Of a stretch of DNA of 11,932 nt, positions 1 to 11,932 are shown piece after piece (position 1 is the first letter of the stretch; every line of letters starts with the position of its first letter). The position numbers and the translations under genes were made by a program. Source of the DNA: an uncultured Lachnospiraceae bacterium (GTDB lineage: Bacteria > Bacillota > Clostridia > Lachnospirales > Lachnospiraceae). The notes beneath the pieces are model-generated. The model made no database searches. It had not been told where the DNA came from and worked only from the letters and a program-made list of their open reading frames with translations. Location of the stretch: NCBI GenBank assembly GCA_949743325.1, contig CATJTQ010000124.1:1-11932 (forward strand). The letters are read 5' to 3'.

Positions 1-410
1 GTCGTAATAACCGGGTTAGCGCCTATTTTTTCTGCAATATATGATGTCCATTCATTGGCACCGCCAAGATGCCCTGACAGCAGAGAAATAACATTTTTTC
101 CTGTGTCATCAATAACAATGACCGCAGGATCTGTTTTCTTATCTGCAATATACGGAGCAATCTTTCTAACTGCAATACCGCACGCTCCGATAAAAATTAT
201 TAAATCACAGCATGCAAACTTCATGCCAACCCATTCAGATAGAGGAACTTTTAATCTTGGCAGAATATCTTCCGCCCTCTCATTGGTCGTAACCGCCTCT
301 ATTTCCAGACTGCCATTAAATTTTTCATCTGAATCATTTAATAAAAAGCTTAAAATTTTTTTTCCTAAAGACGCCCCCGCCACGGAAAATGATACTATGG
401 CTGTCTTCAT
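1..410 (-). CDS. cbiG: cobalt-precorrin 5A hydrolase CbiG, N-terminal part (gene continues beyond left edge)
   Basis: Minus-strand ATG at 410..408 with GGAG about 8 nt upstream. Translation MKTAIVSFSVAGASLGKKILSFLLNDSDEKFNGSLEIE...IFIGACGIAVRKIAPYIADKK resembles the CbiG N-terminal domain. No stop codon before position 1. The listed + ORF 55..414 is its antisense shadow. Confidence 0.75.
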   Translation of the reverse strand, partial: MKTAIVSFSVAGASLGKKILSFLLNDSDEKFNGSLEIEAVTTNERAEDILPRLKVPLSEWVGMKFACCDLIIFIGACGIAVRKIAPYIADKKTDPAVIVIDDTGKNVISLLSGHLGGANEWTSYIAEKIGANPVIT

Positions 411-433
411 ATAATTTTCTCCATAAAACCTGT

Positions 434-1192
434 TTATCTAACCGCTTCTCTATACTCCGTTGTAAATGATGGATCATACAGCTTAGACCTCTCATAAACT
501 GACGCTCCAACAACATTTCCTACTATTATCAATGCAGTTTTTGTAATATTATGTTCTTTGGCTGTCTGTGCCAAAGTTGCTACTGTACAAACATACTTTT
601 CCTCATCAGGCCATGTAGCCTTATAAACAATTGCTGCAGGCGTATCTTCATAATAGCCTCCATCAATCAATCGTTTACTTAATTGTTCCAACATACCAGT
701 ACTCAAAAAAATTACCATTGTCGCCTGATGTGATGCAAAGCTCTCTATGCTCTCTTTCTCAGGCACAGATGTTCTCCCTGCCATTCTCGTAATAATTACA
801 CTCTGAGAAATATCCGGCAGCGTATATTCCATCTGCAGAGCTGCCGCTGCTCCGCAAAATGCACTTACTCCAGGACAGTTTTCGTACTGTATTCCCTCTC
901 TATCAAGTATATCCATCTGTTCTTTTATTGCACCATATATACTTGGATCTCCTGTATGCAGACGCACAATATTTTTATTGTTACCATCGGCAGATTTAAT
1001 AACACTGATAACCTCCTCCAATGTCATTTTTGCACTGTCATAAATCTCACACTTATCGCGGCACACATTTAAAAGCTCAGGGTTTACAAGCGAACCGGCA
1101 TAGATAACCACATCAGCATCTCTTAATAAATTCTGTCCGCGAACTGTGATTAAATCTACGGCCCCGCTTCCAGCTCCAACAAATGAAACCAT
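434..1192 (-). CDS. cbiF: cobalt-precorrin-4 C11-methyltransferase (CbiF/CobM)
   Basis: 252 aa. VGAGSGAVDLITVRG ... LHTGDPSIYGA ... PGVSAF motifs of the tetrapyrrole (class III) SAM methyltransferase family. ATG at 1192..1190 overlaps the upstream stop (TAATG), consistent with translational coupling. Confidence 0.9.
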   Translation of the reverse strand: MVSFVGAGSGAVDLITVRGQNLLRDADVVIYAGSLVNPELLNVCRDKCEIYDSAKMTLEEVISVIKSADGNNKNIVRLHTGDPSIYGAIKEQMDILDREGIQYENCPGVSAFCGAAAALQMEYTLPDISQSVIITRMAGRTSVPEKESIESFASHQATMVIFLSTGMLEQLSKRLIDGGYYEDTPAAIVYKATWPDEEKYVCTVATLAQTAKEHNITKTALIIVGNVVGASVYERSKLYDPSFTTEYREAVR

Positions 1193-1791
1193 TATCTGTT
1201 CATCCTTTCCAGCATATTTCCATTAAAATGGCATCTGTAACCCTCGCCATTTTTGCATTTATAGTCATAGTAAGCTTTTTTCTCACTGTCATACTCACTA
1301 AAAACAGCCATAATCGTACCGCCGTGTACAATATATGCAGTATGATTATATTTTTGCTCATAACATATTTTTACAGTTTCATCAAAAGCCGCTATTACTC
1401 TGCTCTTAAAATTATCCAACCCCTCGCCAGCAGGCATATCATAACTGCCGTTACTGTCGAGCCAATCCCGATACATTTTATTCTTCATTAAATCATCATG
1501 ATTTTTCCCTTCAAAATCACCAAAGTCATATTCACGGAAACCGTCAACTACTATAAAACCTCTCTTATCAATGTCTAACCCCAACTGCTCAAATATTAAC
1601 TCAGCTGTTTGAATACAGCGCCTCATCGGACTTACAAAAATCACATCTGTATCGTTTAAATATGAATAAGTTTCAATTCTATTTTTTATATCTCTTATTC
1701 CTTCATCTGATAACGGCTCATCAGATCTTCCAACATATCTGTGCTCTATATTTCCAAGAGTCTTGCCATGTCTAATAAAAGTCATCCGCAT
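1192..1791 (-). CDS. cobC: histidine-phosphatase (phosphoglycerate-mutase) superfamily protein, probable alpha-ribazole-5'-phosphate phosphatase
   Basis: 199 aa. N-terminal RHG catalytic motif (MRMTFIRHGKT). Size and position between cbiD and cbiF fit CobC. AAGGTGA RBS 7 nt upstream of ATG at 1791. Confidence 0.6.
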   Translation of the reverse strand: MRMTFIRHGKTLGNIEHRYVGRSDEPLSDEGIRDIKNRIETYSYLNDTDVIFVSPMRRCIQTAELIFEQLGLDIDKRGFIVVDGFREYDFGDFEGKNHDDLMKNKMYRDWLDSNGSYDMPAGEGLDNFKSRVIAAFDETVKICYEQKYNHTAYIVHGGTIMAVFSEYDSEKKAYYDYKCKNGEGYRCHFNGNMLERMNR

Positions 1792-1798
1792 ATTTTTA

Positions 1799-2923
1799 TC
1801 ACCTTATAAATTCTTTTAACAGTTCCATTGCTGAGTTCGTTGTTCCTAATACCCCATATATATTAGAAAACATTATTACTTCAACAGTCATCCCTTCATA
1901 AGCTCTTCTATTTAAATTAACATATATTTTCTGCATTATATATGACATAACGCTTTCTATAAGATCATTTCTCTTTAATATTTCTACTGCCTCGTCAGCA
2001 GTAACACACTGTAATATTTTTCTGCAAATATATATATCCGCTCCCGCCATAACAGCCGCCGAACATAAGACTTCCATCCTTGCATCAGCCCATTTAGAAT
2101 GAGTATTCATAATACCGGCTGCAATTTTTACAAGTTTACCGATATGTCCAATAAGCAGTATCCTTTCTATCTGAAATTCATATGCCATATCAATAGTCTC
2201 ACCTATGAAATTGCTGCACTTTATACCCGAATCTAAATCTAAACCCAAATAATCTCTGGCAAAATCTCTTCCATAATTGCCTGGTGTCACCAACAGATTT
2301 TTTGTACCGCCAAAAGCTCTAAGCTTCATTTCTGCATATATTGTCGCTACTAATGCCTGCTCACTCATAGGTTCCACAATACCGCTTGTACCAAGTATTG
2401 ATATACCACCCTCTATTCCAAGTCTTGGATTAAAAGTATTTTCTGCAATACTAACTCCCATTGGAACGTATATCTCAATTGACATACCACCGCTGTAGCT
2501 GCATGTCTCAAAAACATCCAACACAGCTTCCTCAATCATCCTTCTCGGCACACTGTTTATAGCCGCGGCTCCGACAGGCTGATCCAATCCGGGCTTAGTA
2601 ATACGCCCAACTCCAAATCCACCGTCAATATTGATTCCACTGTCGCAATAACCAACCTTAGCAAACACTAATACACCGTCTGTACAGTCTGCATCATCCC
2701 CGGCATCTTTTCTGACGGCACAGCAAACCTCAGTTTCTGAAATATTTATCTCTTCTATCTTCAAATTTAGAATTAAACCTTTTGGAGTTTTTAATGAAAT
2801 TACGTCTACTCTTCTTTTAGTCAGAAGCATTATTGCGGCAGCTTTAGACGCTGCAGCCGCACAGCTTCCGGTAGTATAACCGCACCTTAATTTTCTGTTT
2901 TCTTTATAAACATAATTTTCCAT
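1799..2923 (-). CDS. cbiD: cobalt-precorrin-5B C1-methyltransferase CbiD
   Basis: 374 aa. Hallmark N-terminal LRCGYTTGSCAAAASKAA and GVGRITKPGL segments of the CbiD family. Confidence 0.9.
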   Translation of the reverse strand: MENYVYKENRKLRCGYTTGSCAAAASKAAAIMLLTKRRVDVISLKTPKGLILNLKIEEINISETEVCCAVRKDAGDDADCTDGVLVFAKVGYCDSGINIDGGFGVGRITKPGLDQPVGAAAINSVPRRMIEEAVLDVFETCSYSGGMSIEIYVPMGVSIAENTFNPRLGIEGGISILGTSGIVEPMSEQALVATIYAEMKLRAFGGTKNLLVTPGNYGRDFARDYLGLDLDSGIKCSNFIGETIDMAYEFQIERILLIGHIGKLVKIAAGIMNTHSKWADARMEVLCSAAVMAGADIYICRKILQCVTADEAVEILKRNDLIESVMSYIMQKIYVNLNRRAYEGMTVEVIMFSNIYGVLGTTNSAMELLKEFIR

Positions 2924-2934
2924 ATGTGAAAATT

Positions 2935-4215
2935 CTAACCTTCACATTTAGCAAGCGCCTGATCAATATCTGCAATCAGATCCTCTTTATCCTCAATACC
3001 GCAGCTCATACGAATTAACTCTGCCGGAACTCCAGCCTCTTCAAGCTGTTTATCGGTCATCTGTCTGTGTGTACTTGTAGCAGGGTTAAGACAACATGTT
3101 CTTGCATCTGCAACATGAGTCTCAATCGCTGCAATTTTTAAATTCTTCATAAATATTTCTGCTGCATCCCTGCCGCCTTTTAGTCCAAACGACACGACAC
3201 CGCATCCCCCATCAGGGAAATATTTCTGCGCTAAATTATAATACTTATTCCCTGGAAGACTCGCATAATTTACATAAGAAACCTTAGGGTGCTTAGAAAG
3301 ATAATCAGCTACAGCTAACCCATTTTCACAATGTCTCTTCATCCTTACATGCAGACTTTCCAGTCCTAGATTTAACAAAAACGCATTTTGAGGGCTTTGA
3401 ACAGAACCCAAATCGCGCATAAGCTGGGCTGTACATTTTGTAATAAATGCCTTTTCATTGCCAAAATCCTTTACATAAGTAACACCATGATAACTCTCAT
3501 CTGGAGAACACAGTCCTGGATATTTATCTGCATACGCCATCCAGTCAAAATTACCGCTGTCAACAATCGCTCCGCCGACTCCGGCGCCGTGTCCATCCAT
3601 ATATTTTGTAGTTGAATGAGTTACAATATCAGCCCCCCACTCAATCGGACGGCAGTTTACCGGAGTTGCAAAAGTATTATCTATAATAAACACAACGCCA
3701 TGATCATGTGCCAGTTTAGCAAACTTCTCAATATCAAGCACCGTAAGGGCCGGATTCGCAATCGTCTCTCCAAATACCGCCTTTGTATTAGGTTTAAACG
3801 CTTTATTTAATTCCTCAACAGAAGCATCTGCATCAACAAATGTCACATCAATACCCATTCTCTTCATAGTCACTGATAACAAATTAAAAGTTCCGCCATA
3901 AATACTGCTTGAAGCAACAATATGGTCTCCTGCTCCGCAAATATTAAAAAGAGCGAAGAAATTTGCAGCCTGTCCGCTGCTTGTAAGCATTGCGGCAGTG
4001 CCGCCTTCCAATTGAGCTATTTTAGCCGCAACAAAGTCATTTGTCGGATTTTGAAGTCTTGTATAGAAATATCCTTCTGCCTCTAAATCAAACAGCTTTC
4101 CCATATCCTCGCTTGTATCATATTTAAATGTAGTACTCTGAATAATAGGAATCTGCCTTGGTTCACCATTTCCCGGCGTATAACCGCCCTGTACACAAAT
4201 TGTATTCGTTTTCAT
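2935..4215 (-). CDS. metY: O-acetylhomoserine sulfhydrylase (PLP-dependent Cys/Met metabolism enzyme family)
   Basis: 426 aa. Typical OAH-sulfhydrylase length. Motifs YTRLQNPT and THSTTKYMDGHG (PLP-binding lysine). GGAGG RBS 8 nt upstream of ATG 4215. Stop is only 11 nt before the cbiD start. Confidence 0.85.
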   Translation of the reverse strand: MKTNTICVQGGYTPGNGEPRQIPIIQSTTFKYDTSEDMGKLFDLEAEGYFYTRLQNPTNDFVAAKIAQLEGGTAAMLTSSGQAANFFALFNICGAGDHIVASSSIYGGTFNLLSVTMKRMGIDVTFVDADASVEELNKAFKPNTKAVFGETIANPALTVLDIEKFAKLAHDHGVVFIIDNTFATPVNCRPIEWGADIVTHSTTKYMDGHGAGVGGAIVDSGNFDWMAYADKYPGLCSPDESYHGVTYVKDFGNEKAFITKCTAQLMRDLGSVQSPQNAFLLNLGLESLHVRMKRHCENGLAVADYLSKHPKVSYVNYASLPGNKYYNLAQKYFPDGGCGVVSFGLKGGRDAAEIFMKNLKIAAIETHVADARTCCLNPATSTHRQMTDKQLEEAGVPAELIRMSCGIEDKEDLIADIDQALAKCEG

Positions 4216-4252
4216 CTTTTCTAACCTCCAAATAACTTATTTAATTATTTTA

Positions 4253-4281
4253 ATTATATTCGCAAAAAAAGCGTTAGTCAA
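4253..4281 (-). promoter_or_regulatory. sigma-A type promoter for the metY(-cbi) transcript
   Basis: Minus strand reads TTGACT (4281..4276) - 17 nt - TATAAT (4258..4253). Predicted TSS is about 30 nt upstream of the metY ATG. Confidence 0.5.
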
Positions 4282-4563
4282 GAGCATGAAATATATTAGT
4301 CAATACATTAGAATCCGCCTTCTTTATTCAAATAAACTTCAGCAAGCATAACCTTAAACTCTGATAAAAATTTAGGCTTTGACATAAAAATCCCCCTTAA
4401 ATAGAATTTGGTTATTTACCTTATCTATTCAAGGGGTATCATATCATTGTTTACTATACGCTCTTACGCTGTACAGCTATATCTTATTTACTGTGATATG
4501 TATATCTAATAGCATAGCATATCCTAATCGCACTGTTATTTTTATATGTTTTTGCAAATAAAA

Positions 4564-4950
4564 TTACTCCAGATAATATAAGAAAACCCTGCAGACGCCA
4601 TCAGCGGCCGGATAGCATACTACAAGTCTTTCCGGAATTCCTTTATTCCTATATTTTGCCGGAAAATACTTAATCGTTCTTTGCAGGCCTGAAAAACTTA
4701 TATATATTTTCTGTTTTTCATCATATGCAATCCCCGTTACTTTTTCAATATAAACTGCATCTTCTTCCTTAACTACCTCATACTCTTCTGCGTCGCCTTC
4801 CGCATACATCTCCCATTGTTTTTCTATTGGACGATATCCATCAGCTTCCAAACCCGTTACAAGTTCACTTATTTTCTCCTCGTTAATATCTATTAACGCA
4901 GTATAAACGCCTGAATATTCTAAATGTTCTAATGTGTTTTTAGCACTCAC
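4564..4950 (-). CDS. hypothetical acidic protein (128 aa), no recognisable domain
   Basis: ORF with apparent GTG start at 4950 immediately after an in-frame stop. RBS-like AAGGA is 15 nt upstream (poor spacing). Coding status uncertain. Confidence 0.4.
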   Translation of the reverse strand: MSAKNTLEHLEYSGVYTALIDINEEKISELVTGLEADGYRPIEKQWEMYAEGDAEEYEVVKEEDAVYIEKVTGIAYDEKQKIYISFSGLQRTIKYFPAKYRNKGIPERLVVCYPAADGVCRVFLYYLE

Positions 4951-5264
4951 TCATATTCATAGCTGTCCTTACTGATTCTAAATATCTTCTATATCAGTTC
5001 TTCATCCCTTATTTTCTGAAAATTAAAGATAGCCATACACAAATCAAAAGAAACAATTATTACTATTATATATAAGATAATTTTTTCTTCTAAAAACTCC
5101 ACTCAAAAATAAGAGCCTATATTGCAGGAGACAAATAAACAGTAAAAATTGCTGCAGAATGTAACATTGCTACAAGCACCTTGTCTGAATTGAAAAAAAA
5201 TTTGGTGAGTAATGCCAGTACAATTTTTATATCTTCTAACTTTTGTCATCTTGTTGTTACCAGA

Positions 5265-5310
5265 CAAGAGTTTATTTAACATTCGTTAGATGAACTCTTG
5301 CTCTTTTTCC
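5265..5310 (+). terminator. orphan intrinsic-terminator-like hairpin
   Basis: Perfect 8-bp stem CAAGAGTT (5265-5272) / AACTCTTG (5293-5300) with 20-nt loop. Followed on the + strand by CTCTTTTTCC. No + strand gene upstream. Confidence 0.3.
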
Positions 5311-5334
5311 TCTCCTCGAAAATTGCAATTTCGT

Positions 5335-5367
5335 ATAAGAAAAAAGCATTGATTTATATCAATGCTT
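5335..5367 (-). terminator. rho-independent terminator ending the tRNA operon
   Basis: Perfect 10-bp stem AAGCATTGAT (5344-5353) / ATCAATGCTT (5358-5367) with 4-nt loop. On the minus strand the hairpin is followed by TTTTTTCTT (A-run 5335-5343 on +). It starts 16 nt past the tRNA-Leu 3' end. Confidence 0.7.
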
Positions 5368-5382
5368 CTCTCTCATTAAAAA

Positions 5383-5469
5383 TGCCGCAGACCGGAATCG
5401 AACCGGTACGGGAGTATAAGTCCCGCAGGATTTTAAGTCCTGTGCGTCTGCCAGTTCCGCCACTGCGGC
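5383..5469 (-). tRNA. tRNA-Leu (anticodon TAA), 87 nt, long variable arm, CCA not encoded
   Basis: Reverse complement GCCGCAGTGGCGGAACTGGCAGACGCACAGGACTTAAAATCCTGCGGGACTTATACTCCCGTACCGGTTCGATTCCGGTCTGCGGCA folds as a cloverleaf. 7-bp acceptor stem, anticodon loop CTTAAAA, variable arm CGGGA..TCCCG, T-loop TTCGATT. Confidence 0.9.
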
Positions 5470-5487
5470 ATAAGTCTTTCGACCTAA

Positions 5488-5560
5488 TGGGACCTACAGG
5501 GCTCGAACCTGTGACCCTCTGCTTGTAAGGCAGATGCTCTCCCAGCTGAGCTAAGATCCC
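5488..5560 (-). tRNA. tRNA-Val (anticodon TAC), 73 nt, CCA not encoded
   Basis: Reverse complement GGGATCTTAGCTCAGCTGGGAGAGCATCTGCCTTACAAGCAGAGGGTCACAGGTTCGAGCCCTGTAGGTCCCA. Anticodon loop CTTACAA. Canonical D and T arms. Confidence 0.9.
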
Positions 5561-5581
5561 ACGACAACTATTCAGTTGTAA

Positions 5582-5655
5582 CGACCCGGATGGGGTTCGA
5601 ACCCACGACCTCCGCCGTGACAGGGCGGCGCTCTAACCAGCTGAGCCACCAGGCC
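5582..5655 (-). tRNA. tRNA-Asp (anticodon GTC), 74 nt, CCA not encoded
   Basis: Reverse complement GGCCTGGTGGCTCAGCTGGTTAGAGCGCCGCCCTGTCACGGCGGAGGTCGTGGGTTCGAACCCCATCCGGGTCG. Anticodon loop CTGTCAC. Acceptor stem pairs with two G-U wobbles. Confidence 0.88.
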
Positions 5656-5692
5656 AAAATATAGATATTAGATAATTTGATTTTTAAAACAA

Positions 5693-5766
5693 TGGACCTT
5701 CGGGGACTCGAACCCAGGACCGACCGGTTATGAGCCGGTTGCTCTAACCAACTGAGCTAAAGGTCC
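5693..5766 (-). tRNA. tRNA with CAT anticodon, 74 nt: elongator tRNA-Met or lysidine-type tRNA-Ile2 (not initiator)
   Basis: Reverse complement GGACCTTTAGCTCAGTTGGTTAGAGCAACCGGCTCATAACCGGTCGGTCCTGGGTTCGAGTCCCCGAAGGTCCA. Anticodon loop CTCATAA. No G29-G31/C39-C41 run and a paired 1:72, so not tRNA-fMet. Sequence resembles Firmicutes tRNA-Ile(CAU) as much as tRNA-Met. Confidence 0.85.
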
Positions 5767-5791
5767 AAATCTCTAAAAATTATTAGACAGA

Positions 5792-5864
5792 AGCCGATGA
5801 TCGGACTCGAACCGATAACCTGCTGATTACAAATCAGCTGCTCTGCCAATTGAGCCACATCGGC
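5792..5864 (-). tRNA. tRNA-Thr (anticodon TGT), 73 nt, CCA not encoded
   Basis: Reverse complement GCCGATGTGGCTCAATTGGCAGAGCAGCTGATTTGTAATCAGCAGGTTATCGGTTCGAGTCCGATCATCGGCT. Anticodon loop TTTGTAA. Confidence 0.9.
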
Positions 5865-5872
5865 AAACAATA

Positions 5873-5944
5873 TGACTCCAAGGGGATTTGAACCCCTGTT
5901 ACCGCCGTGAAAGGGCGGTGTCTTAACCGCTTGACCATGGAGCC
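5873..5944 (-). tRNA. tRNA-Glu (anticodon TTC), 72 nt, CCA not encoded
   Basis: Reverse complement GGCTCCATGGTCAAGCGGTTAAGACACCGCCCTTTCACGGCGGTAACAGGGGTTCAAATCCCCTTGGAGTCA. 3-bp D stem typical of tRNA-Glu. Anticodon loop CTTTCAC. Confidence 0.9.
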
Positions 5945-6002
5945 TTGCTTTTACAGGAATTAAATTCCTTGCTAATAATTAGTCGTTTCAACGACGATAT
6001 TT

Positions 6003-6031
6003 ATACTATCATATAAATTGAGTTAATGCAA
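6003..6031 (-). promoter_or_regulatory. candidate promoter of the tRNA operon
   Basis: Minus strand TTGCAT (6031..6026) - 17 nt - TAGTAT (6008..6003), about 50 nt upstream of the tRNA-Glu 5' end. Confidence 0.3.
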
Positions 6032-6089
6032 GTACTTTTTTCAAAAAATGTAAAAAAATTTCAAATATTTTAATTCATCTGTACTGTCC

Positions 6090-7184
6090 TCATCCAATCA
6101 TCTTGCTCAACTGTTCCATAATACCTATATTTCCATTAACAGAAATCTCTCCAACACGCTCACATATTCTCTCTAAATACTCAAGCTCTTTTAATTTATA
6201 TAAAGTTTTGTTCTCATCCATAAGCTTTGCGGTATTTAACAGTGAACGGGTAGACGCCACCTCTTCTCTTCTTGAAATAACGTTTGCCTGTGCAGTCTTC
6301 TCCGCAACCAACACAGAATTCATAATATTTTTTATCTCGCCAGGTAAAATAATATCTTTAATACCTGCCGTCAAAAAATTCACGCAAAACATTTCCTCCT
6401 TCTCCTTAATTAACTTATATATTTCTTTTGAAATCTGCTCCTTTAACTCCAATATTTCATCCAATTTATAATTGCTTGTAATTTCTCTTATTGACAACTG
6501 TACTGCTGAGTATAGCTGTCCCTTTAAATCATTTAATTTCTCGCCGAAATCTTTGGCGTCTCTAATCTTAAATATACAAACAACATTCATCCTAATACCG
6601 ATCTTATCTTTTGTTAAAATTTCCTGTCCTACAATATCAAGCTCTCTCTGTTTCATATCGACAACCTTATATGTAATGCTGTGATAGTAATTCCAAAATC
6701 TGTACAAACCTTTCGGCAGTTGTTCCTGCAATATATTATCATAATATAAAAGCCCCGTCTCTCCATCTCCGACAGATACTTCGGTATAATATTTACCAGG
6801 TACTAACGAGAGCATTTGTTTTGATACATCCGAACCAATAATTGTGTCAGCCATAGACACCACTTTTATTTCATAATTTTCAAAAACATTCCAAAAAATA
6901 TATTCCTTTCTGTTAGCAAATGAAGTTAACTTTCCATTTACATAAATGAAACCAACTGAACCATCTGGTATTTCCATATGTACTGTAGAGTCAAAAAACA
7001 CAGAATCTTTACAAAGAATCTGATAAGGTACATCTATGTAATCTACCTCTCCAGACATTTCCTCAATCTCAACCTTATATCCTGTCACTTTAGAAAAATG
7101 ATAAGTTCCAGCAGTAATCATTTTCTTAAAAATACCATTTTTTAATACAAAACCTGCCTGATTATCTTTAATAATATATTTCAT
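6090..7184 (-). CDS. SPFH/band-7 (stomatin/prohibitin/flotillin/HflKC) domain protein lacking a transmembrane segment
   Basis: 364 aa from the second ATG (7184). GGAGG lies 7 nt upstream of it but only 1 nt before the first ATG at 7190. The C-terminal half (LPKGLYRFW...ILTKDKIGIRMNVVCIFKIRDAKDF...LTAGIKDIILPGEIKNIMNSVLVAEKTAQANVISRREEVAS...) matches the SPFH core plus its following helical region. N-terminal residues 1-150 (QAGFVLKNGIFKKMITAGTYHF...VPYQILCKDSVFFDSTVHMEIPD) look like a second, partial SPFH-like repeat. No hydrophobic TM helix. Confidence 0.7.
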   Translation of the reverse strand: MKYIIKDNQAGFVLKNGIFKKMITAGTYHFSKVTGYKVEIEEMSGEVDYIDVPYQILCKDSVFFDSTVHMEIPDGSVGFIYVNGKLTSFANRKEYIFWNVFENYEIKVVSMADTIIGSDVSKQMLSLVPGKYYTEVSVGDGETGLLYYDNILQEQLPKGLYRFWNYYHSITYKVVDMKQRELDIVGQEILTKDKIGIRMNVVCIFKIRDAKDFGEKLNDLKGQLYSAVQLSIREITSNYKLDEILELKEQISKEIYKLIKEKEEMFCVNFLTAGIKDIILPGEIKNIMNSVLVAEKTAQANVISRREEVASTRSLLNTAKLMDENKTLYKLKELEYLERICERVGEISVNGNIGIMEQLSKMIG

Positions 7185-7550
7185 ATACATACCTCCTACA
7201 TAAAATCTCTTCTATATATTAATTATTTACTTAATAATAAAAAATACTTTTATCCCGCATTCATCAGTTAAATGCGGAAAGTTAGTTAAGCATATGGTCC
7301 AACAGAAGAACAATTATAATTTCCTCATTATGAACAATTATTTTGATTAGAAAATAATGTCTGATAATATAGTTTTTATAAATGTTGTTCAGTCTTTCTA
7401 TATACGGTATCCTTAAATTTCAAGCATATAACTGATTGACAATAGACTTGGATAAAATTTACGATATTACAAATTATATCAATGACCTTTTTTAAGCTTG
7501 ACTTGCAGTAAACCGAAAATAAAATGCACACTATGTCTGAACTTGGGATA

Positions 7551-7690
7551 AAAGCATTACATAGAGCGGATTCGAACCGCAGACTTGACATGTCTTACCA
7601 AAATTTTGTGTACTCTACCACTGAGCTACCGTTTTCACGGAAGGGAGTTGAACCCTTGACAACACAATCTTATAAAACTTAACCACTAAT
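7551..7690 (-). ncRNA. non-canonical tandem tRNA-like element (D-arm/T-arm modules without a foldable cloverleaf): possible Y-RNA-like/tRNA-mimic ncRNA or degenerate tRNA pseudogene
   Basis: The minus strand carries a series of tRNA-like modules. D-like arm CTTAA-TTAGTGG-TTAAG (7684..7668). T-arm AAGGG-TTCAACT-CCCTT (7647..7631). GNRA hairpin CCGT-GAAA-ACGG (7630..7619). Canonical D-arm TA-GCTC-AGTGGTA-GAGT (7618..7602). Palindromic CAAAATTTTG. Anticodon-like hairpin AGAC-ATGTCAA-GTCT (7585..7571). T-arm GCGG-TTCGAAT-CCGC (7570..7556). The flanks cannot form a 7-bp acceptor stem. There is no variable region between the anticodon-like stem and the T stem. Confidence 0.4.
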
Positions 7691-7795
7691 TAAGTTATGT
7701 GAAATATTATGATATACCTTACAGCACACTGCAGGCACCGCCGGGCAGAAAGTGACTTTCAATACCCGCGCATAATAAATTATTTCCATATTAAT

Positions 7796-9028
7796 TTAAC
7801 CCTTAACAACTCCGACCGTTTTCAATTTTCTTAACGGTGTGACTATATCTGACTGCTGAGCCATCACCAAATCAATATCTTTATATGCAAACCTGCACTC
7901 TTCAGCAACGTCATTTTTTTTGCGTTTACCAAGCACAACCCCTTGTTCCTTTAAATCTACCATAACCTCTTCAACAGAAAATGTCTTAACTGCTCCTGAG
8001 CGTGAATAATTTCTGCCTGCTCCATGTGAAGAAGAACAAAAAGATTCTCCATTGCCCTTTCCTTGTACAACATAACTGTATGAGCCCATTGCACCTGGTA
8101 TTACAGCAAGTTCGCCCTCTCGTACACGAGTAGCGCCTTTTCGATGTACCCAAACATTCTCATTATAATGACTTTCTAACGACGCATAGTTATGATGACA
8201 ATTGATCTCTTCACCAAATTCCACAATATAATCTGTATGCTTCTCTATTATCTCTTTAACAATACTGCAAGTTTTTTCCAACATGCGGGCACGATTCTCA
8301 AAAGCATATTCTAATGCTAAATTCATCCAATTGATATATTGCTGACCTTCTGTTGAATTAACAGAAAGAAATGCCAAGCGATACTCATCCTTTACCTCGC
8401 TGTACCATCTTTGATTTAAGACTCTTGCCTTCTCATGAAAATAATCGCATATCGCCTTTCCAAGATGACGGCTTCCTGAATGAAGCATTATACACAAAAA
8501 TCCATCCTGATCCTCCTGCAGCTCAATAAAGTGATTACCGCCTCCTAAACTTCCAACCTGATAATATCCATCATCAATTAATGGAAGTAATTCACTATCT
8601 ATTTCATACTTATCAAGTTCATATTTTGCTAAATCAAGCACTTTTGATTCCTGCGGCACTTTATATCTATCTGTATTTAACGGTATTGTTCTCATAATAT
8701 TACCAACTATCGCCTGAATCACAGAACCATTTCCCGTCTGAATCTCACGTATATCTTCCATGTGAACATTAGTTGGGATAAAATCCATACCACATCCAAT
8801 ATCAACTCCCACTGCATTGGGAATAATAACATCTTTTGCCGCGATAACACCGCCTATAGGCATACCCTTTCCCGCATGTGTATCAGGCATTAAACACACC
8901 CATTTATGGATAAACGGAAGCTGTGATAAGTGATAAGCCTGTTCAAGACAATTTTCCTCCAACTGACTTTCACTCTCCAACCATACTTTAACCGGAAATC
9001 TTGTTTTCTCATTATTTAATACAAACAT
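7796..9028 (-). CDS. rtcB: RNA-splicing ligase RtcB (3'-phosphate/2',3'-cyclic phosphate to 5'-OH RNA ligase)
   Basis: The ORF contains MPDTHAGKGMPIGGV, GVDIGCGM, GGGNHFIE, HRKGA, IPGAMGSYSYVV and SSSHGAGR, the conserved RtcB metal/GTP/His-GMP motifs. The start is taken as the internal ATG 9028..9026 (MFVLNNEKTRFPVKVWLE..., aligning with the E. coli RtcB N-terminus). It has an AGGGTGA RBS 7 nt upstream. The ORF-track start at 9106 would add 26 non-conserved hydrophobic residues. Confidence 0.9.
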   Translation of the reverse strand: MFVLNNEKTRFPVKVWLESESQLEENCLEQAYHLSQLPFIHKWVCLMPDTHAGKGMPIGGVIAAKDVIIPNAVGVDIGCGMDFIPTNVHMEDIREIQTGNGSVIQAIVGNIMRTIPLNTDRYKVPQESKVLDLAKYELDKYEIDSELLPLIDDGYYQVGSLGGGNHFIELQEDQDGFLCIMLHSGSRHLGKAICDYFHEKARVLNQRWYSEVKDEYRLAFLSVNSTEGQQYINWMNLALEYAFENRARMLEKTCSIVKEIIEKHTDYIVEFGEEINCHHNYASLESHYNENVWVHRKGATRVREGELAVIPGAMGSYSYVVQGKGNGESFCSSSHGAGRNYSRSGAVKTFSVEEVMVDLKEQGVVLGKRKKNDVAEECRFAYKDIDLVMAQQSDIVTPLRKLKTVGVVKG

Positions 9029-9142
9029 AGCGTTATCACCCTTTCTTATTTTTAAATTCTCTGTAGCTGATAAAAAGATTATATACAATAATTTCCAATA
9101 TATCATTTAAAAAAAGTTGCGAACTGTCTATCAATATAAATA

Positions 9143-9163
9143 TTAATTTAAGCTTTAAATTAA
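9143..9163. repeat. 21-bp interrupted palindrome TTAATTTAA-gct-TTAAATTAA (candidate operator)
   Basis: Perfect 9-bp inverted arms around a 3-nt centre. Lies immediately downstream of the predicted rtcB -10, i.e. over the predicted rtcB TSS, in the divergent rtcB/WYL intergenic region. Confidence 0.5.
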
Positions 9164-9168
9164 AAGTT

Positions 9169-9196
9169 GTTATATATTCAGTTAGTGCATTGTCAA
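9169..9196 (-). promoter_or_regulatory. candidate sigma-A promoter for rtcB
   Basis: Minus strand TTGACA (9196..9191) - 16 nt - TATAAC (9174..9169). Leader of about 130 nt to the rtcB ATG. No -24/-12 sigma-54 element seen. Confidence 0.3.
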
Positions 9197-9307
9197 AACC
9201 GCTCCCAAAGCGCCTTCAGCCGCTAAAACGGCTCTTTTACTCTGTTCCTTTGATAAGTCCACAATTTTATAAACAATTAATAAAAAATAACTTTTAGCAT
9301 ATTTTTC

Positions 9308-9336
9308 TTGCATCTGGTAACCAATTATTTTATGAT
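9308..9336 (+). promoter_or_regulatory. sigma-A type promoter for the WYL-regulator gene pair
   Basis: TTGCAT (9308-9313) - 17 nt - TATGAT (9331-9336). A short inverted repeat ATACT-gat-AGTAT (9335-9347) overlaps the -10/+1. About 70-nt leader to ATG 9413. Confidence 0.5.
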
Positions 9337-9412
9337 ACTGATAGTATTTACATAATTATAAGATTTAAAAAACTAATAATTAATAAACAACTTAGGAGAA
9401 ACCATCATACAC

Positions 9413-10660
9413 ATGTCTAATTTTCAAGAACTGATTAAAAATTTTTCTAAAACTAGAGATTATGTCAGAGATTTCTTTGTCTATGGATTCAAAACAAGAA
9501 ATGATTTTAATAACAAAAGCGCAAGAACTTACGACAATGAGCGCAGACGCCTTGAAAGCTGGTTAAGCCCATATATTCGAAGAGACTATACTTCTAATGG
9601 TGCAAACATCTCTCTTGCCATAGACAGTAATCTTCTTGATACAAACCCGCTTTTTCAAGTTTGGAAAACAAAATGCTTTACAGATAATGACATTGTACTG
9701 CATTTTCTAATAATAGATTTATTAAATAATAATAAGACACTAACTGCAGATGAAATAACAGACAATCTTTTAACAAAATATAATGCATTTTTTGATATAC
9801 AAACCGTTCGCCGAAAGTGCAATAAATATACGAATGATGGACTTCTTACTAAAGAGAAACTTGGAAAAAAAGTTTTATATTCTATAGATAACTCTCTTGC
9901 TTTATGGATTAAAACCAATGAAAATATACATAATGCACTTGCATTTTATCAGATGGCTGGAGATTTTGGAATTATTGCCAACGTATTATCAGAACAATTA
10001 GATATTGAAAACAATACCTTCCGTGTTAAGCACAATTTTTTTGTACATACGTTAGAAGATGAAATACTTATAGAACTCCTTAACTGTATTAATAAAAAGT
10101 TAAATGTACAGCTGCAAATTAAAAGCTCTAAAGCAGGTACACTAAACACATCAAATTGTACACCTCTGCAAATATTTACAAGCACACGGAGCGGTCGCCG
10201 TTTCCTTTGCGGCTATGTACACAAAAGCAGACGATTTACATGTTTCCGTCTTGATACAATTAAACAGGTCTTTCCTATGGAAAAATATAATGAATACGAT
10301 GAACTTTTAACTTTATTAAATAAAAACCGCAGCCATATCTGGGGAGTTTCTTTTCAAAGTGAAACAGGTAATCATCTTGAGAAATTAACAATGATTTTAC
10401 ATGTAAATGAACCATTCGAACACTTTATAATCGAGCGATTAAAACGAGAGGGCAGGGGAGGTATCATTTCTAAAACGGCACCAGACACATATAAATATGA
10501 AATTGAAGTGTTTGACTGCAATGAAATGCTTCCTTGGATTCGAACCTTTATAGGCAGGATTATATCGTTAGAATGTACATCAGAAATAGTCAAAAAAAGA
10601 TTTTATAACGATTTGAACACTATGTATAAAATGTATGGCATAAACACCAGGAGACAATAA
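9413..10660 (+). CDS. wHTH-WYL-WCX family transcriptional regulator with about 90-aa N-terminal extension (PafB/PafC-, BrxR/CapW-like)
   Basis: 415 aa. wHTH-like segment around residues 95-160 (...TLTADEITDNL...TVRRKCNKYTNDGLLTKEKLGKKVLYSI). WYL-like core (PLQIFTSTRSGRRFLCGYVHKSRRFTCFRLDTIKQV). C-terminal WCX-like segment (TYKYEIEVFDCNEMLPWIRTFIGRIISLE). RBS AGGAG is 14 nt upstream (long spacer). About 25-28% GC. Confidence 0.65.
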   Translation: MSNFQELIKNFSKTRDYVRDFFVYGFKTRNDFNNKSARTYDNERRRLESWLSPYIRRDYTSNGANISLAIDSNLLDTNPLFQVWKTKCFTDNDIVLHFLIIDLLNNNKTLTADEITDNLLTKYNAFFDIQTVRRKCNKYTNDGLLTKEKLGKKVLYSIDNSLALWIKTNENIHNALAFYQMAGDFGIIANVLSEQLDIENNTFRVKHNFFVHTLEDEILIELLNCINKKLNVQLQIKSSKAGTLNTSNCTPLQIFTSTRSGRRFLCGYVHKSRRFTCFRLDTIKQVFPMEKYNEYDELLTLLNKNRSHIWGVSFQSETGNHLEKLTMILHVNEPFEHFIIERLKREGRGGIISKTAPDTYKYEIEVFDCNEMLPWIRTFIGRIISLECTSEIVKKRFYNDLNTMYKMYGINTRRQ

Positions 10661-10662
10661 TT

Positions 10663-11649
10663 ATGGAAATATTTTCAGAAATATACAGCTGTTACTATAG
10701 AGTACTACGTCATTTATTATGCAGTCAAAATTCCATCAGCATTCAGCAAATATACGATCAAATCTATGATGAAGGATTTGAAGAAAGTCTATTGTCAATC
10801 ATTCCAAAACTAGAAAGCGGAACATGGAATTTATTTAATAAAAGTGGTGACCTATATATATCAAAAATTAACTCCGCATTTATAACTCCTCTGTCAAACC
10901 TTCAAAAATCCTATTTAAAGGCATTACTATCTGATGCACGGATTAGATTATTTCTAGGACAAGAACAATTGGAAACAATAAATAATATGCTCTCGTCAGT
11001 ATCTCCTCTTTGGAAACAGGAACAATTTTACTACTTCGATAAATTTACTGACGGAGACCCATTTGAAAATGAACACTACCAGCATTGCTTTCGAACTTTG
11101 CTTAATGCACAAAAAAATAATATATATGTAGATATTGAGTATAAATCACCAAAGGGAAGCCGCATTCATCACTACTATTACCCTGCGCGTCTCGAATATT
11201 CTGTAAAAAATGATAAATTTCGCATAATTGCAATGGAACAAATAAAGCATAACAAAACAAAATTGGAAATTTTAAATATTGATCGAATTCAAACAATAAA
11301 ACTTACAGATAAAATTTATACATTAACAAATGATTTAAATTCTGCAATCAAAAATTCTTATTATCAGGAACCAATTACGCTACAAATTATAAATAAACGC
11401 AATGCTTTGGAACGGGCAATGCTGCATTTTGCAAACTATGAAAAAAATACAACAAAAATAAATGAAAACACCTATGAGTGCCGCATATATTATAATAAAA
11501 ATATGGAAACTGAACTTCTAATTGAAGTAATGTCTTTTGGACCAATGCTTACAGTATTAGGAAACGACAGCTTCTTAAAAAGTTTAAAACAACGGCTAGA
11601 AAATCAATTGTCAATTTCAACCATACAAAATATTAATCCTAACATCTGA
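10663..11649 (+). CDS. wHTH-WYL-WCX family transcriptional regulator (paralogue of upstream gene)
   Basis: 328 aa. N-terminal wHTH-like segment (EIFSEIYSCYYRVLRHLLCSQNSISIQQIYDQI...). WYL-like core (YVDIEYKSPKGSRIHHYYYPARLEYSVKNDKFRIIAMEQIKHNKTKLEILNIDRIQTIKL). WCX-like C-terminus (TYECRIYYNKNMETELLIEVMSFGPMLTVLGNDSFLKSLKQRLE), clearly homologous to the end of the upstream protein. ATG is 2 nt after the upstream stop with AGGAG 10 nt upstream, so the pair is co-transcribed and coupled. Confidence 0.7.
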   Translation: MEIFSEIYSCYYRVLRHLLCSQNSISIQQIYDQIYDEGFEESLLSIIPKLESGTWNLFNKSGDLYISKINSAFITPLSNLQKSYLKALLSDARIRLFLGQEQLETINNMLSSVSPLWKQEQFYYFDKFTDGDPFENEHYQHCFRTLLNAQKNNIYVDIEYKSPKGSRIHHYYYPARLEYSVKNDKFRIIAMEQIKHNKTKLEILNIDRIQTIKLTDKIYTLTNDLNSAIKNSYYQEPITLQIINKRNALERAMLHFANYEKNTTKINENTYECRIYYNKNMETELLIEVMSFGPMLTVLGNDSFLKSLKQRLENQLSISTIQNINPNI

Positions 11650-11840
11650 AAAATTATGAATACTTTTGCTATTCACTTTAAAAATGCCAAAACAAAATGT
11701 ACCCTTTCCCTAGTTTTTGTCATTTTCCTGACCTTATCCAAGAACTTATCGGAACTGCTTTTTGCTTCCCTTGTTGCGTGTGCGTATCCATTTATTTTGA
11801 TACTCACATCATAATTACCTAACAACTTTTACAACAAAAA

Positions 11841-11868
11841 AGTCCATAAACATAAACGTCTACGGACT
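11841..11868 (-). terminator. possible terminator downstream of tRNA-Asn
   Basis: Minus strand AGTCC (11868..11864) ... GGACT (11845..11841) with an 18-nt loop, followed by TTTTTTGTTG. Weak 5-bp stem. Confidence 0.3.
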
Positions 11869-11876
11869 AATCAAGC

Positions 11877-11932
11877 TCCCCGAGTAGGGCTCGAACCTAC
11901 AACCCCACGGTTAACAGCCGTGTGCTCTACCA
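11877..11932 (-). tRNA. tRNA-Asn (anticodon GTT), 3' portion only (5' part beyond right edge), CCA not encoded
   Basis: Reverse complement ...TGGTAGAGCACACGGCTGTTAACCGTGGGGTTGTAGGTTCGAGCCCTACTCGGGGAG. Anticodon loop CTGTTAA. T-arm GTAGG-TTCGAGC-CCTAC. Acceptor 3' strand plus discriminator G ends at 11877. Confidence 0.85.

Follow-up and report, generated by a model that had tools for sequence, protein, structure and literature searches.

The window analysed here is an 11,932-nucleotide stretch from an uncultured Lachnospiraceae bacterium (contig CATJTQ010000124.1, positions 1-11,932; assembly GCA_949743325.1). It carries a conserved structured RNA between the gene for the RNA ligase RtcB and a gene for a Band-7 protein, all three being read on the minus strand in the order rtcB, RNA, Band-7. 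The rtcB gene (7796-9106; Pfam RtcB, 360 bits) encodes an RNA 3'-phosphate/2',3'-cyclic phosphate ligase and the Band-7/SPFH gene (6090-7190), whose homologues are annotated as 'slipin family protein', lies directly downstream of the RNA. The RNA itself extends from ~7787 to ~7240, a distance of ~550 nt, and fills nearly the entire spacer: its 5' domain begins 9 nt past the rtcB stop codon and its 3' domain stops ~50 nt ahead of the Band-7 start codon. An earlier reading of the bare letters (the sequence-only reading) had placed tRNA-like hairpins at 7551-7690, directly downstream of rtcB. All the pieces it described are present on the minus strand and their position was right, but the span was far too narrow, with conservation in an alignment of relatives reaching well outside these limits on both sides. 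Because helix P3 of the 5' domain contains invariant G-U pairs, the RNA can be assigned to the rtcB/Band-7 strand, the only one with which these pairs and the frequent G-U pairs of the D-arm are compatible.

Followed 5' to 3' along the minus strand, the tRNA-like core (7566-7694) opens with hairpin P4 (7678-7694; CUUAAU-UAGUG-GUUAAG), which is 91.3% paired among relatives and double-changed at four of its six pairs. The P4 loop is variable, with GG in 36 of 46 homologues, and in three loci (L052, L054 and L058) the hairpin has been swapped for another. There follows a circularly permuted, YrlA-like tRNA mimic (7606-7667), delineated by alignment to the Rfam YrlA model, by the minimum free energy (MFE) fold and by RNAalifold. 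This module is closed by a 5-bp stem, P5, in which UUGUG (7663-7667) pairs with CACAA (7606-7610), and comprises in turn a variable-loop-like UUGUC (7658-7662), T-arm 1 (7641-7657; AAGGG-UUCAACU-CCCUU), an acceptor-like GNRA hairpin with a closed 4-bp stem (7629-7640; CCGU-GAAA-ACGG), a UA resembling U8-A9 (7627-7628) and a D-arm (7612-7626; GCUC-AGUGGUA-GAGU). It corresponds to a tRNA that has been circularly permuted and opened in the anticodon loop. A linker (7596-7605) with an AUGG conserved in relatives then leads to an anticodon-like hairpin, H6 (7581-7595; AGAC-AUGUCAA-GUCU, GUC centred), whose stem covaries at three of five pairs. H6 directly abuts T-arm 2 (7566-7580; GCGG-UUCGAAU-CCGC), which is 100% paired across relatives, and no variable region separates the two.

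The GNRA hairpin anticipated in the sequence-only reading is therefore in place at 7629-7640. Of the two units of D-arm and T-arm that it proposed, both T-arms are present, but just one of the D-arms is canonical; the second D-like hairpin is P4. The anticodon-like hairpin with GTC in a 7-nt loop was also correctly described, but GUC is not conserved in relatives: the H6 loop sequence varies, with CUGUAAA in most of them. The strong conservation that had been claimed is borne out: the 46 homologues show little or no variation in the T-loops, the D-arm and flanking residues, or in the residues that make tertiary contacts in tRNA (U8, A14, G15/C48, G18, A21, U54-U55-C56, A58 and G53-C61). The 11-mer GGTTCRANTCC occurs seven times in the window against 0.03 expected: four copies lie in a tRNA array (see below), two in the RNA element and one in a coding region. 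This seventh copy, GGTTCGAATCC at 10536-10546 (minus strand), lacks a flanking stem and is antisense to the 3'-terminal part of a 415-amino-acid gene, where the product carries a conserved PWIRTFI motif; it is most likely a coding coincidence.

Upstream of the core lies a 5' domain of three helices (7701-7787), predicted by RNAalifold and tested on an alignment of 46 sequences. Its closing helix, P1 (7775-7786 with 7701-7710), is 91.6% paired, with double changes at five of 11 pairs. P2 (7740-7771) encloses an inner hairpin, P2c (7748-7760), in which four of five pairs are double-changed (GGAAG/CUUCC becoming GGGAG/CUCCC or GAAAG/CUUUC, for example). P3 (7714-7738), a bulged hairpin with a CGUG-type loop, is 98.5% paired and one of its pairs is split 19:19 between G-C and U-A among relatives. 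The junction of the domain, CUGCCCGGCGGUGCC, is invariant, and a P3-like 'GGUGC..hairpin..GUAUGCC' is found again in distant Band-7 loci.

On the other side of the core, a long multi-helix hairpin domain (7240-7561) shows the same architecture in the MFE folds of seven loci. In these folds the conserved tail CUUUUAUCCC pairs with GGGAUAAAAG, a short way ahead of the Band-7 ribosome-binding site. The long, irregular hairpin enclosed in this way has the remaining conserved blocks as its arms, and its nested helices include an equivalent of GGAGGAA:UUCCUCC. In the window the tail after T-arm 2, GCUUUUAUCCC (7545-7555), pairs with GGGAUAAAAGUAU (7244-7256), and this AT-rich copy of the hairpin retains 61 of the 72 pairs tested. 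The motif GGAUACCG (7406-7413, minus strand) is conserved within an internal loop. In the form GG(G/A)AUACCG it is kept from Lachnospiraceae to Oscillospiraceae-type loci (L085, at ~4877; L105; L112; L143) and is a candidate protein-binding site. One subgroup of relatives (L072, at 11263-11330, and L063-type loci) carries in addition a near-perfect palindrome of ~68 nt between rtcB and the RNA. Rfam microRNA models match the L072 copy spuriously, on both strands, and it may serve as a terminator or a processing site, or be a small mobile element.

Compensatory change was sought in all three domains, as the sequence-only reading had proposed, and was found in the helices of each. For the core and 5' domain, RNAalifold recovered the three-way module of T-arm, acceptor-like hairpin and D-arm with its closing stem, together with H6, T-arm 2 and two upstream hairpins; P1 and P4 were added to this structure by hand, giving 66 pairs in the 46-sequence alignment. 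In all, 96.0% of cells are paired, against 39-46% when the partners are slid by one to three columns, and 30 pairs show double changes against 7-14 in the slid controls. None of 500 shuffles matched the observed values on any measure. The helices of the permuted module (helices 6-9) are 97.8-100% paired and include compensatory changes, and all helices of the core and 5' domain hold several compensatory pairs with the exception of T-arm 2, where three of four pairs are invariant. The 3' hairpin was tested over 72 pairs in an alignment of 35 sequences, with a structure drawn from one member (L072). This inflates the proportion of cells paired (81.3%, against 37-44% in slid controls) but does not explain the double-change counts (54 pairs, where the controls give 33-43, and 239 cells, where they give 61-114). 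Covariation scores 0.32, with controls at 0.08-0.12, and again none of 500 shuffles attained the observed values. The minus strand of the spacer thus encodes an RNA with a multi-domain secondary structure. The folding energy of single sequences is not significantly below that of shuffles (z -0.9 to -1.6), and the structural support therefore comes from covariation and not from thermodynamics.

Two further pairings were examined and rejected. Pairing of CCAUA, at the end of the 5' domain, with UAUGG, in the linker before H6, is seen in 78% of cells but was equalled by shuffles (459/500) and shows a single double change. The extended, Y-RNA-like stem of the window's MFE fold (GUUUUAUAAGAUUGUG/CACAAAAUUUUGGUAAGAC) is not conserved, and only its 5-bp UUGUG/CACAA portion covaries.

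To follow the element through related genomes, we used an RtcB scan with one genome per species, which gave 80 loci, nearly all from Lachnospiraceae, with RtcB 77-85% identical. The element was detected by nhmmer downstream of rtcB in ~50 of these, and a covariance model of the core detected a full-length copy (at least 94 bits) in 48, never more than one per locus and always just after rtcB. The RNA and Band-7 occur together in 47 loci and are both absent from 30, with the RNA alone in one and Band-7 alone in two (Fisher p=1.7e-18). The single RNA-only locus is cut by a contig end and the two Band-7-only loci bear rearranged RNAs, whilst those loci with neither that were checked (L015, for example) include the full 10 kb downstream of rtcB. 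Remnants of the RNA lie beside truncated or missing Band-7 genes in four loci (L039, L057, L062 and L080). The RNA is strictly linked to Band-7 and tracks Band-7 rather than rtcB. Its carriers include cultivable gut Lachnospiraceae such as Roseburia sp. 1XD42-69 (L011), Petralouisia muris (L042) and Eubacterium sp. 14-2. In relatives the RNA measures 500-1000 nt. In one of them (L011, 11560-11730) the permuted tRNA unit is duplicated and Band-7 is intact; this locus, like two variants considered below (L069 and L035), comes from a metagenome-assembled genome or draft assembly, in which assembly artefacts are possible.

Searches against known RNA families place the element outside the curated ones. 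ARAGORN reports no tRNA or transfer-messenger RNA (tmRNA) at 7240-7787, in answer to the tRNA-finder check suggested beforehand, and Rfam at gathering thresholds reports nothing at the RNA element, its only matches being tRNAs in other parts of the window. Both of the Rfam models that had been proposed for a check, YrlA and tRNA, do match at relaxed thresholds, each below its cut-off. YrlA scores 38.2 bits (cut-off 69; E=9e-7 in a 701-nt search) over 7589-7678, a match that spans T-arm, short hairpin and D-arm in YrlA order and is the sole specific one in Rfam; the relative L072 scores 35.7 bits. The tRNA model (RF00005) gives 22.6 bits (cut-off 29) from the D-arm to T-arm 2 with the acceptor positions mismatched, in keeping with the earlier statement that no 7-bp acceptor stem can form. 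The 5' and 3' domains have no Rfam match even at E<=10 (window 7200-7900; L072 11240-11850), and at the same threshold and over the same intervals there was no match to the Clostridiales and Lachnospiraceae motif families or to the ornate RNAs (ROOL, GOLLD, OLE and raiA). The latter, like the window RNA, run to several hundred nucleotides, have many covarying helices, are found in Clostridia and sometimes lie near tRNA genes, but the context of the window RNA is specific to rtcB and Band-7. Searches of phage and plasmid collections with the DNA of the RNA, and of phages with the Band-7 protein, gave no match. At least 120 stretches of viral contigs fitted a T-arm...D-arm pattern, which is non-specific and is matched by tandem-tRNA junctions as well.

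The closest structural likeness is to YrlA (RF02553), itself described as a circular permutation of a tRNA-like domain (PMC4201824). Both RNAs have the same permuted order of variable-like linker, T-arm, closed acceptor-like hairpin, D-arm and closing stem, conserve the same tertiary-contact residues and are found in the rtcB operon on the coding strand. The closest likeness in context is to the 'band 7-associated tRNA' that Burroughs and Aravind (2016) predicted beside RtcB and a Band-7 protein, as summarised in a 2018 preprint (10.1101/312249). According to that summary, YrlA-like RNAs occasionally adjoin Band-7, the Band-7-associated tRNA-like RNA was at that date a computational prediction without experimental validation, and Band-7 and the tRNA-like RNA were proposed to act as a scaffold or cofactor of RtcB. 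Like the window RNA, the predicted RNA is said to lie on the same strand beside Band-7 and RtcB and to have tRNA D- and T-arms. As summarised there, however, it 'strongly resemble[s] an authentic tRNA', whereas the window RNA has neither an acceptor stem nor a normal anticodon arm, is permuted, with T-arm 2 abutting the anticodon-like hairpin, and adds the 5' three-helix domain and a ~320-nt 3' hairpin. Our Rfam scans found no model for this class. The window RNA fits the Band-7-associated class by its context, in a YrlA-like permuted form with extra domains.

Beyond Lachnospiraceae, tblastn with the Band-7 protein yielded three informative loci. In Subdoligranulum the order is WYL protein, partner protein, RNA, Band-7, RtcB and RlaP nucleotidyltransferase; the RNA has the GNRA hairpin and two T-arms, without a D-arm, and downstream of it the same GGAUACCG motif as in the window. 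In Citrobacter, rtcR is divergent from a leader that is followed by slipin and RlaP genes. In Burkholderia cenocepacia, rtcR is divergent from the RNA, Band-7 and RtcB, and an RNA of the Band-7-associated class sits where the window has its own. Here ARAGORN reports a 'tRNA-???' 260 nt upstream of Band-7. Its fold is a cloverleaf in which the acceptor stem has 7 bp and the anticodon stem is capped by GAAA, and one further T-arm lies ahead of it. The RlaP-family genes ('RNA repair pathway DNA polymerase beta family') that come after Band-7/RtcB in Subdoligranulum (L085, 7753-8505) and Citrobacter (L086, 6134-6919) have no counterpart in the window locus. Scanning metagenomes with a Band-7 alignment yielded a further 80 loci (36-78% identity), most of which have T-arm motifs 250-600 nt upstream of Band-7. 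Many show two tandem permuted units, each of T-arm, acceptor-like hairpin and D-arm, followed by an anticodon hairpin. The core model matches upstream of Band-7 in 31 of 63 metagenome loci searched (E 1e-4 to 1e-31), but since it also scores the window's real tandem tRNAs at 37 and 26 bits, weak matches indicate tRNA-likeness and not homology. The distant loci are placed in the family because the position is fixed and ARAGORN is silent there. As sampled, the family is variable in architecture, its tRNA parts being permuted, duplicated or reduced to bare T-arms according to lineage.

Translation of the Band-7 protein probably starts at an ATG (7184) preceded by GGAGG (7192-7196). The protein is predicted to have no transmembrane helix (maximum 19-residue hydropathy 1.17). 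In the AlphaFold2 model (confidence, pLDDT, 65.5; 70-91 over most of residues 70-280), three N-terminal beta-rich modules precede the SPFH domain and long C-terminal helices, and the longest alignments of the model are to major vault protein (416-426 columns). These features support, without proving, the view that Band-7 would form a soluble ring or cage partnering the RNA. The vault particle and the ribonucleoproteins (RNPs) of Ro60 and Y RNA likewise combine a structured RNA with a ring or cage protein, a likeness of function only. In Anabaena, one repressor that responds to translational stress controls rtcB together with a slipin gene and a tRNA operon (PMC10272220).

Within ±10 kb of the 80 RtcB loci the only conserved neighbours are RtcB, Band-7 and a divergent pair of plus-strand genes; there is no conserved fifth gene. 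The pair, which in the window encodes proteins of 415 aa (9413-10660) and 328 aa (10663-11649), has no Pfam match at threshold and lies beside rtcB in 75 and 71 of the 80 loci, respectively, with or without Band-7. The 415-aa protein has a weak WYL match (17.2 bits) and shares 36% identity (E=4e-93) with a Subdoligranulum protein scoring above the Pfam WYL cut-off; the 328-aa protein is 35% identical to the partner of that WYL protein. These genes probably encode WYL-domain regulators of the locus, taking the place of RtcR in Clostridia. In three contigs with identical RtcB, a 43-aa open reading frame (ORF) lies just upstream of rtcB on the same strand (L001, 2148-2279; L003, 90-221; L004, 675-806), at a position corresponding to ~9180-9315 (minus strand) in the window; it may encode a leader peptide or be an artefact of annotation.

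Some 150 nt beyond Band-7 lies an array of six tRNA genes (5382-5944, minus strand; ARAGORN). In four of 40 relatives Band-7 is followed by genes for tRNA-Glu, tRNA-Cys or both, and several distant Band-7 loci (L149, L151, L155, L161 and L165) directly follow long tRNA arrays. The nearby arrays, together with the tandem-tRNA-like order of modules in the core, suggest that the RNA may have arisen from tandem tRNA genes. A further tRNA gene is cut by the window end (11876-11932, minus strand; Rfam 38.7 bits, model positions 16-71).

Taken together, these results lead us to regard the element, with somewhat better than even confidence, as a structured non-coding RNA that is co-transcribed with rtcB and Band-7, belongs to the Band-7-associated tRNA-like class and is a partner of a cage-type Band-7 protein and of RtcB. 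The RNA, either processed or within the operon transcript, would associate with a soluble Band-7 cage and with RtcB. Its tRNA-shaped elbow would offer a tRNA-like handle to RtcB or to other tRNA-recognising factors, whilst its non-tRNA domains, the 5' domain and the hairpin bearing GGAUACCG, would bind the Band-7 assembly, an arrangement paralleling that of a Y RNA tethering Ro60 to an effector or of vault RNA inside the vault. We infer a role for the RNA as cofactor or scaffold of a Band-7/RtcB RNP. More tentatively, we put forward a stronger version, in which this large RNA serves a soluble, vault-like Band-7/SPFH cage as its dedicated RNA subunit and the cage recruits RtcB. The RNA may also be a decoy, sensor or substrate for RtcB, as the sequence-only reading suggested.

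Several observations weigh against the partner-RNA interpretation. Consensus scans for promoters and terminators around the RNA gave no signal above shuffles, and neither was found between the RNA and Band-7; the RNA may therefore remain part of the Band-7 5' untranslated region, and a stable free RNA is hypothetical. In addition, the permuted unit is missing from one locus (L069, 11480-11560), and in another (L035, 11470-11510) the segment between the two T-loop repeats is deleted, apparently through recombination between T-arms 1 and 2, Band-7 being intact in both. Unless these are assembly errors, the tRNA mimic may be dispensable.

The alternative that survives best is that the element is a cis-acting 5' leader of Band-7 and not a free molecule. 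Such a leader would control Band-7 translation or mRNA stability, either by sensing RNA damage or tRNA-targeting nucleases or by being cut and then resealed by RtcB. The element is always directly upstream of Band-7 on the same strand, wherever rtcB sits, and its closing helix ends only ~50 nt before the Band-7 start with no terminator between. The GGAGGAA of the long hairpin is a conserved Shine-Dalgarno-like sequence paired with an anti-Shine-Dalgarno-like UUCCUCC, and in proteobacteria the RNA falls between the RtcR-dependent promoter region and Band-7. The real Band-7 ribosome-binding site is, however, unpaired in the predicted folds, with no obvious switch visible, and an RNA of ~550 nt with a faithful tRNA mimic far exceeds what known translational leaders need. 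Furthermore, Y RNAs of Salmonella and M. smegmatis are part of operon transcripts and nevertheless act as processed RNAs (PMC4201824). We consider a leader alone to be rather unlikely, although leader and trans-acting roles are not mutually exclusive.

The remaining readings are contradicted by the covariation, ARAGORN and Rfam, Ro-motif and TROVE tests. The sequence-only reading had put forward a YrlA-type Y RNA, and the part of this proposal that stands is a tRNA mimic with a permuted domain; a canonical, Ro60-associated YrlA, with its Rsr encoded elsewhere in the genome, is very unlikely. YrlA is certainly the best Rfam match, and adjacency to rtcB is typical of rsr-yrlBA-rtcBA operons. The score, however, is about half the gathering threshold, the closing stem has only 5 bp where YrlA has a long Ro-binding stem, and the window RNA is much larger, with additional domains. 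The Ro-binding motif GNCGAAN0-1G occurs in one of the 46 homologues and not in the window. There is no TROVE/Ro60 match among the ten largest ORFs of the window, and TROVE is not a conserved neighbour in the clustered neighbourhoods of the 80 loci, although not every flanking ORF was scanned for it. The YrlAs described in the literature, by comparison, share a strand with rsr and are no more than 4 kb from it (PMC4201824), and the presence of the window RNA depends on Band-7 and not on rtcB.

Highly improbable, too, is that the element is a decaying tandem-tRNA remnant or attachment-site (att) scar, now without function. Its order of T-arm, spacer, D-arm, anticodon-like arm and T-arm is that of a tRNA 3' end running into a second tRNA, its T- and D-arm motifs match those of tRNA, the core model cross-matches the real tandem tRNAs and tRNA arrays lie close to this and some distant Band-7 genes. 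Against this, the element lacks an acceptor stem, a conserved anticodon loop and a variable region before T-arm 2, and compensatory substitutions keep every helix, including those with no counterpart in tRNA (P5, P1-P4 and the long hairpin), which excludes the scar that the sequence-only reading had listed as an option. The T- and D-loop residues are near-invariant across RtcB proteins only 77-85% identical, the position of the element and its linkage to Band-7 are fixed, and the true decay products seen beside damaged Band-7 genes look different. Hardly credible, finally, is the reading of the element as an atypical tRNA, functional and aminoacylatable, or as something akin to tmRNA. In its favour, the T- and D-arms have textbook form, M. 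smegmatis YrlA is cleaved by RNase P and given CCA (PMC4201824) and the Burkholderia relative has a 7-bp acceptor stem. Against it, ARAGORN is silent at the element, the tRNA model falls short with its acceptor mismatched, a closed GNRA hairpin of 4 bp stands in for the acceptor stem, the H6 loop varies in sequence and no variable region precedes T-arm 2.

The locus bears on what bacterial RtcB repairs and on the roles played by the Ro/Y-RNA and Band-7/tRNA-like cofactors. For the Band-7 branch, this locus supplies a covariation-backed secondary structure, boundaries about four times as wide as the visible tRNA-like part and a clean genetic signature linked to Band-7, and so makes the role of the Band-7-associated RNA testable. 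The full-length molecule may be a new large structured RNA of a class uncurated in Rfam. If the RNA does belong to a vault-like cage, it would define a bacterial RNA-repair RNP analogous to Ro/Y RNA and eukaryotic vaults. The locus shows how the parts of a tRNA can be re-wired into a scaffold and hints that a soluble bacterial SPFH protein and the vault shell may be structurally alike.

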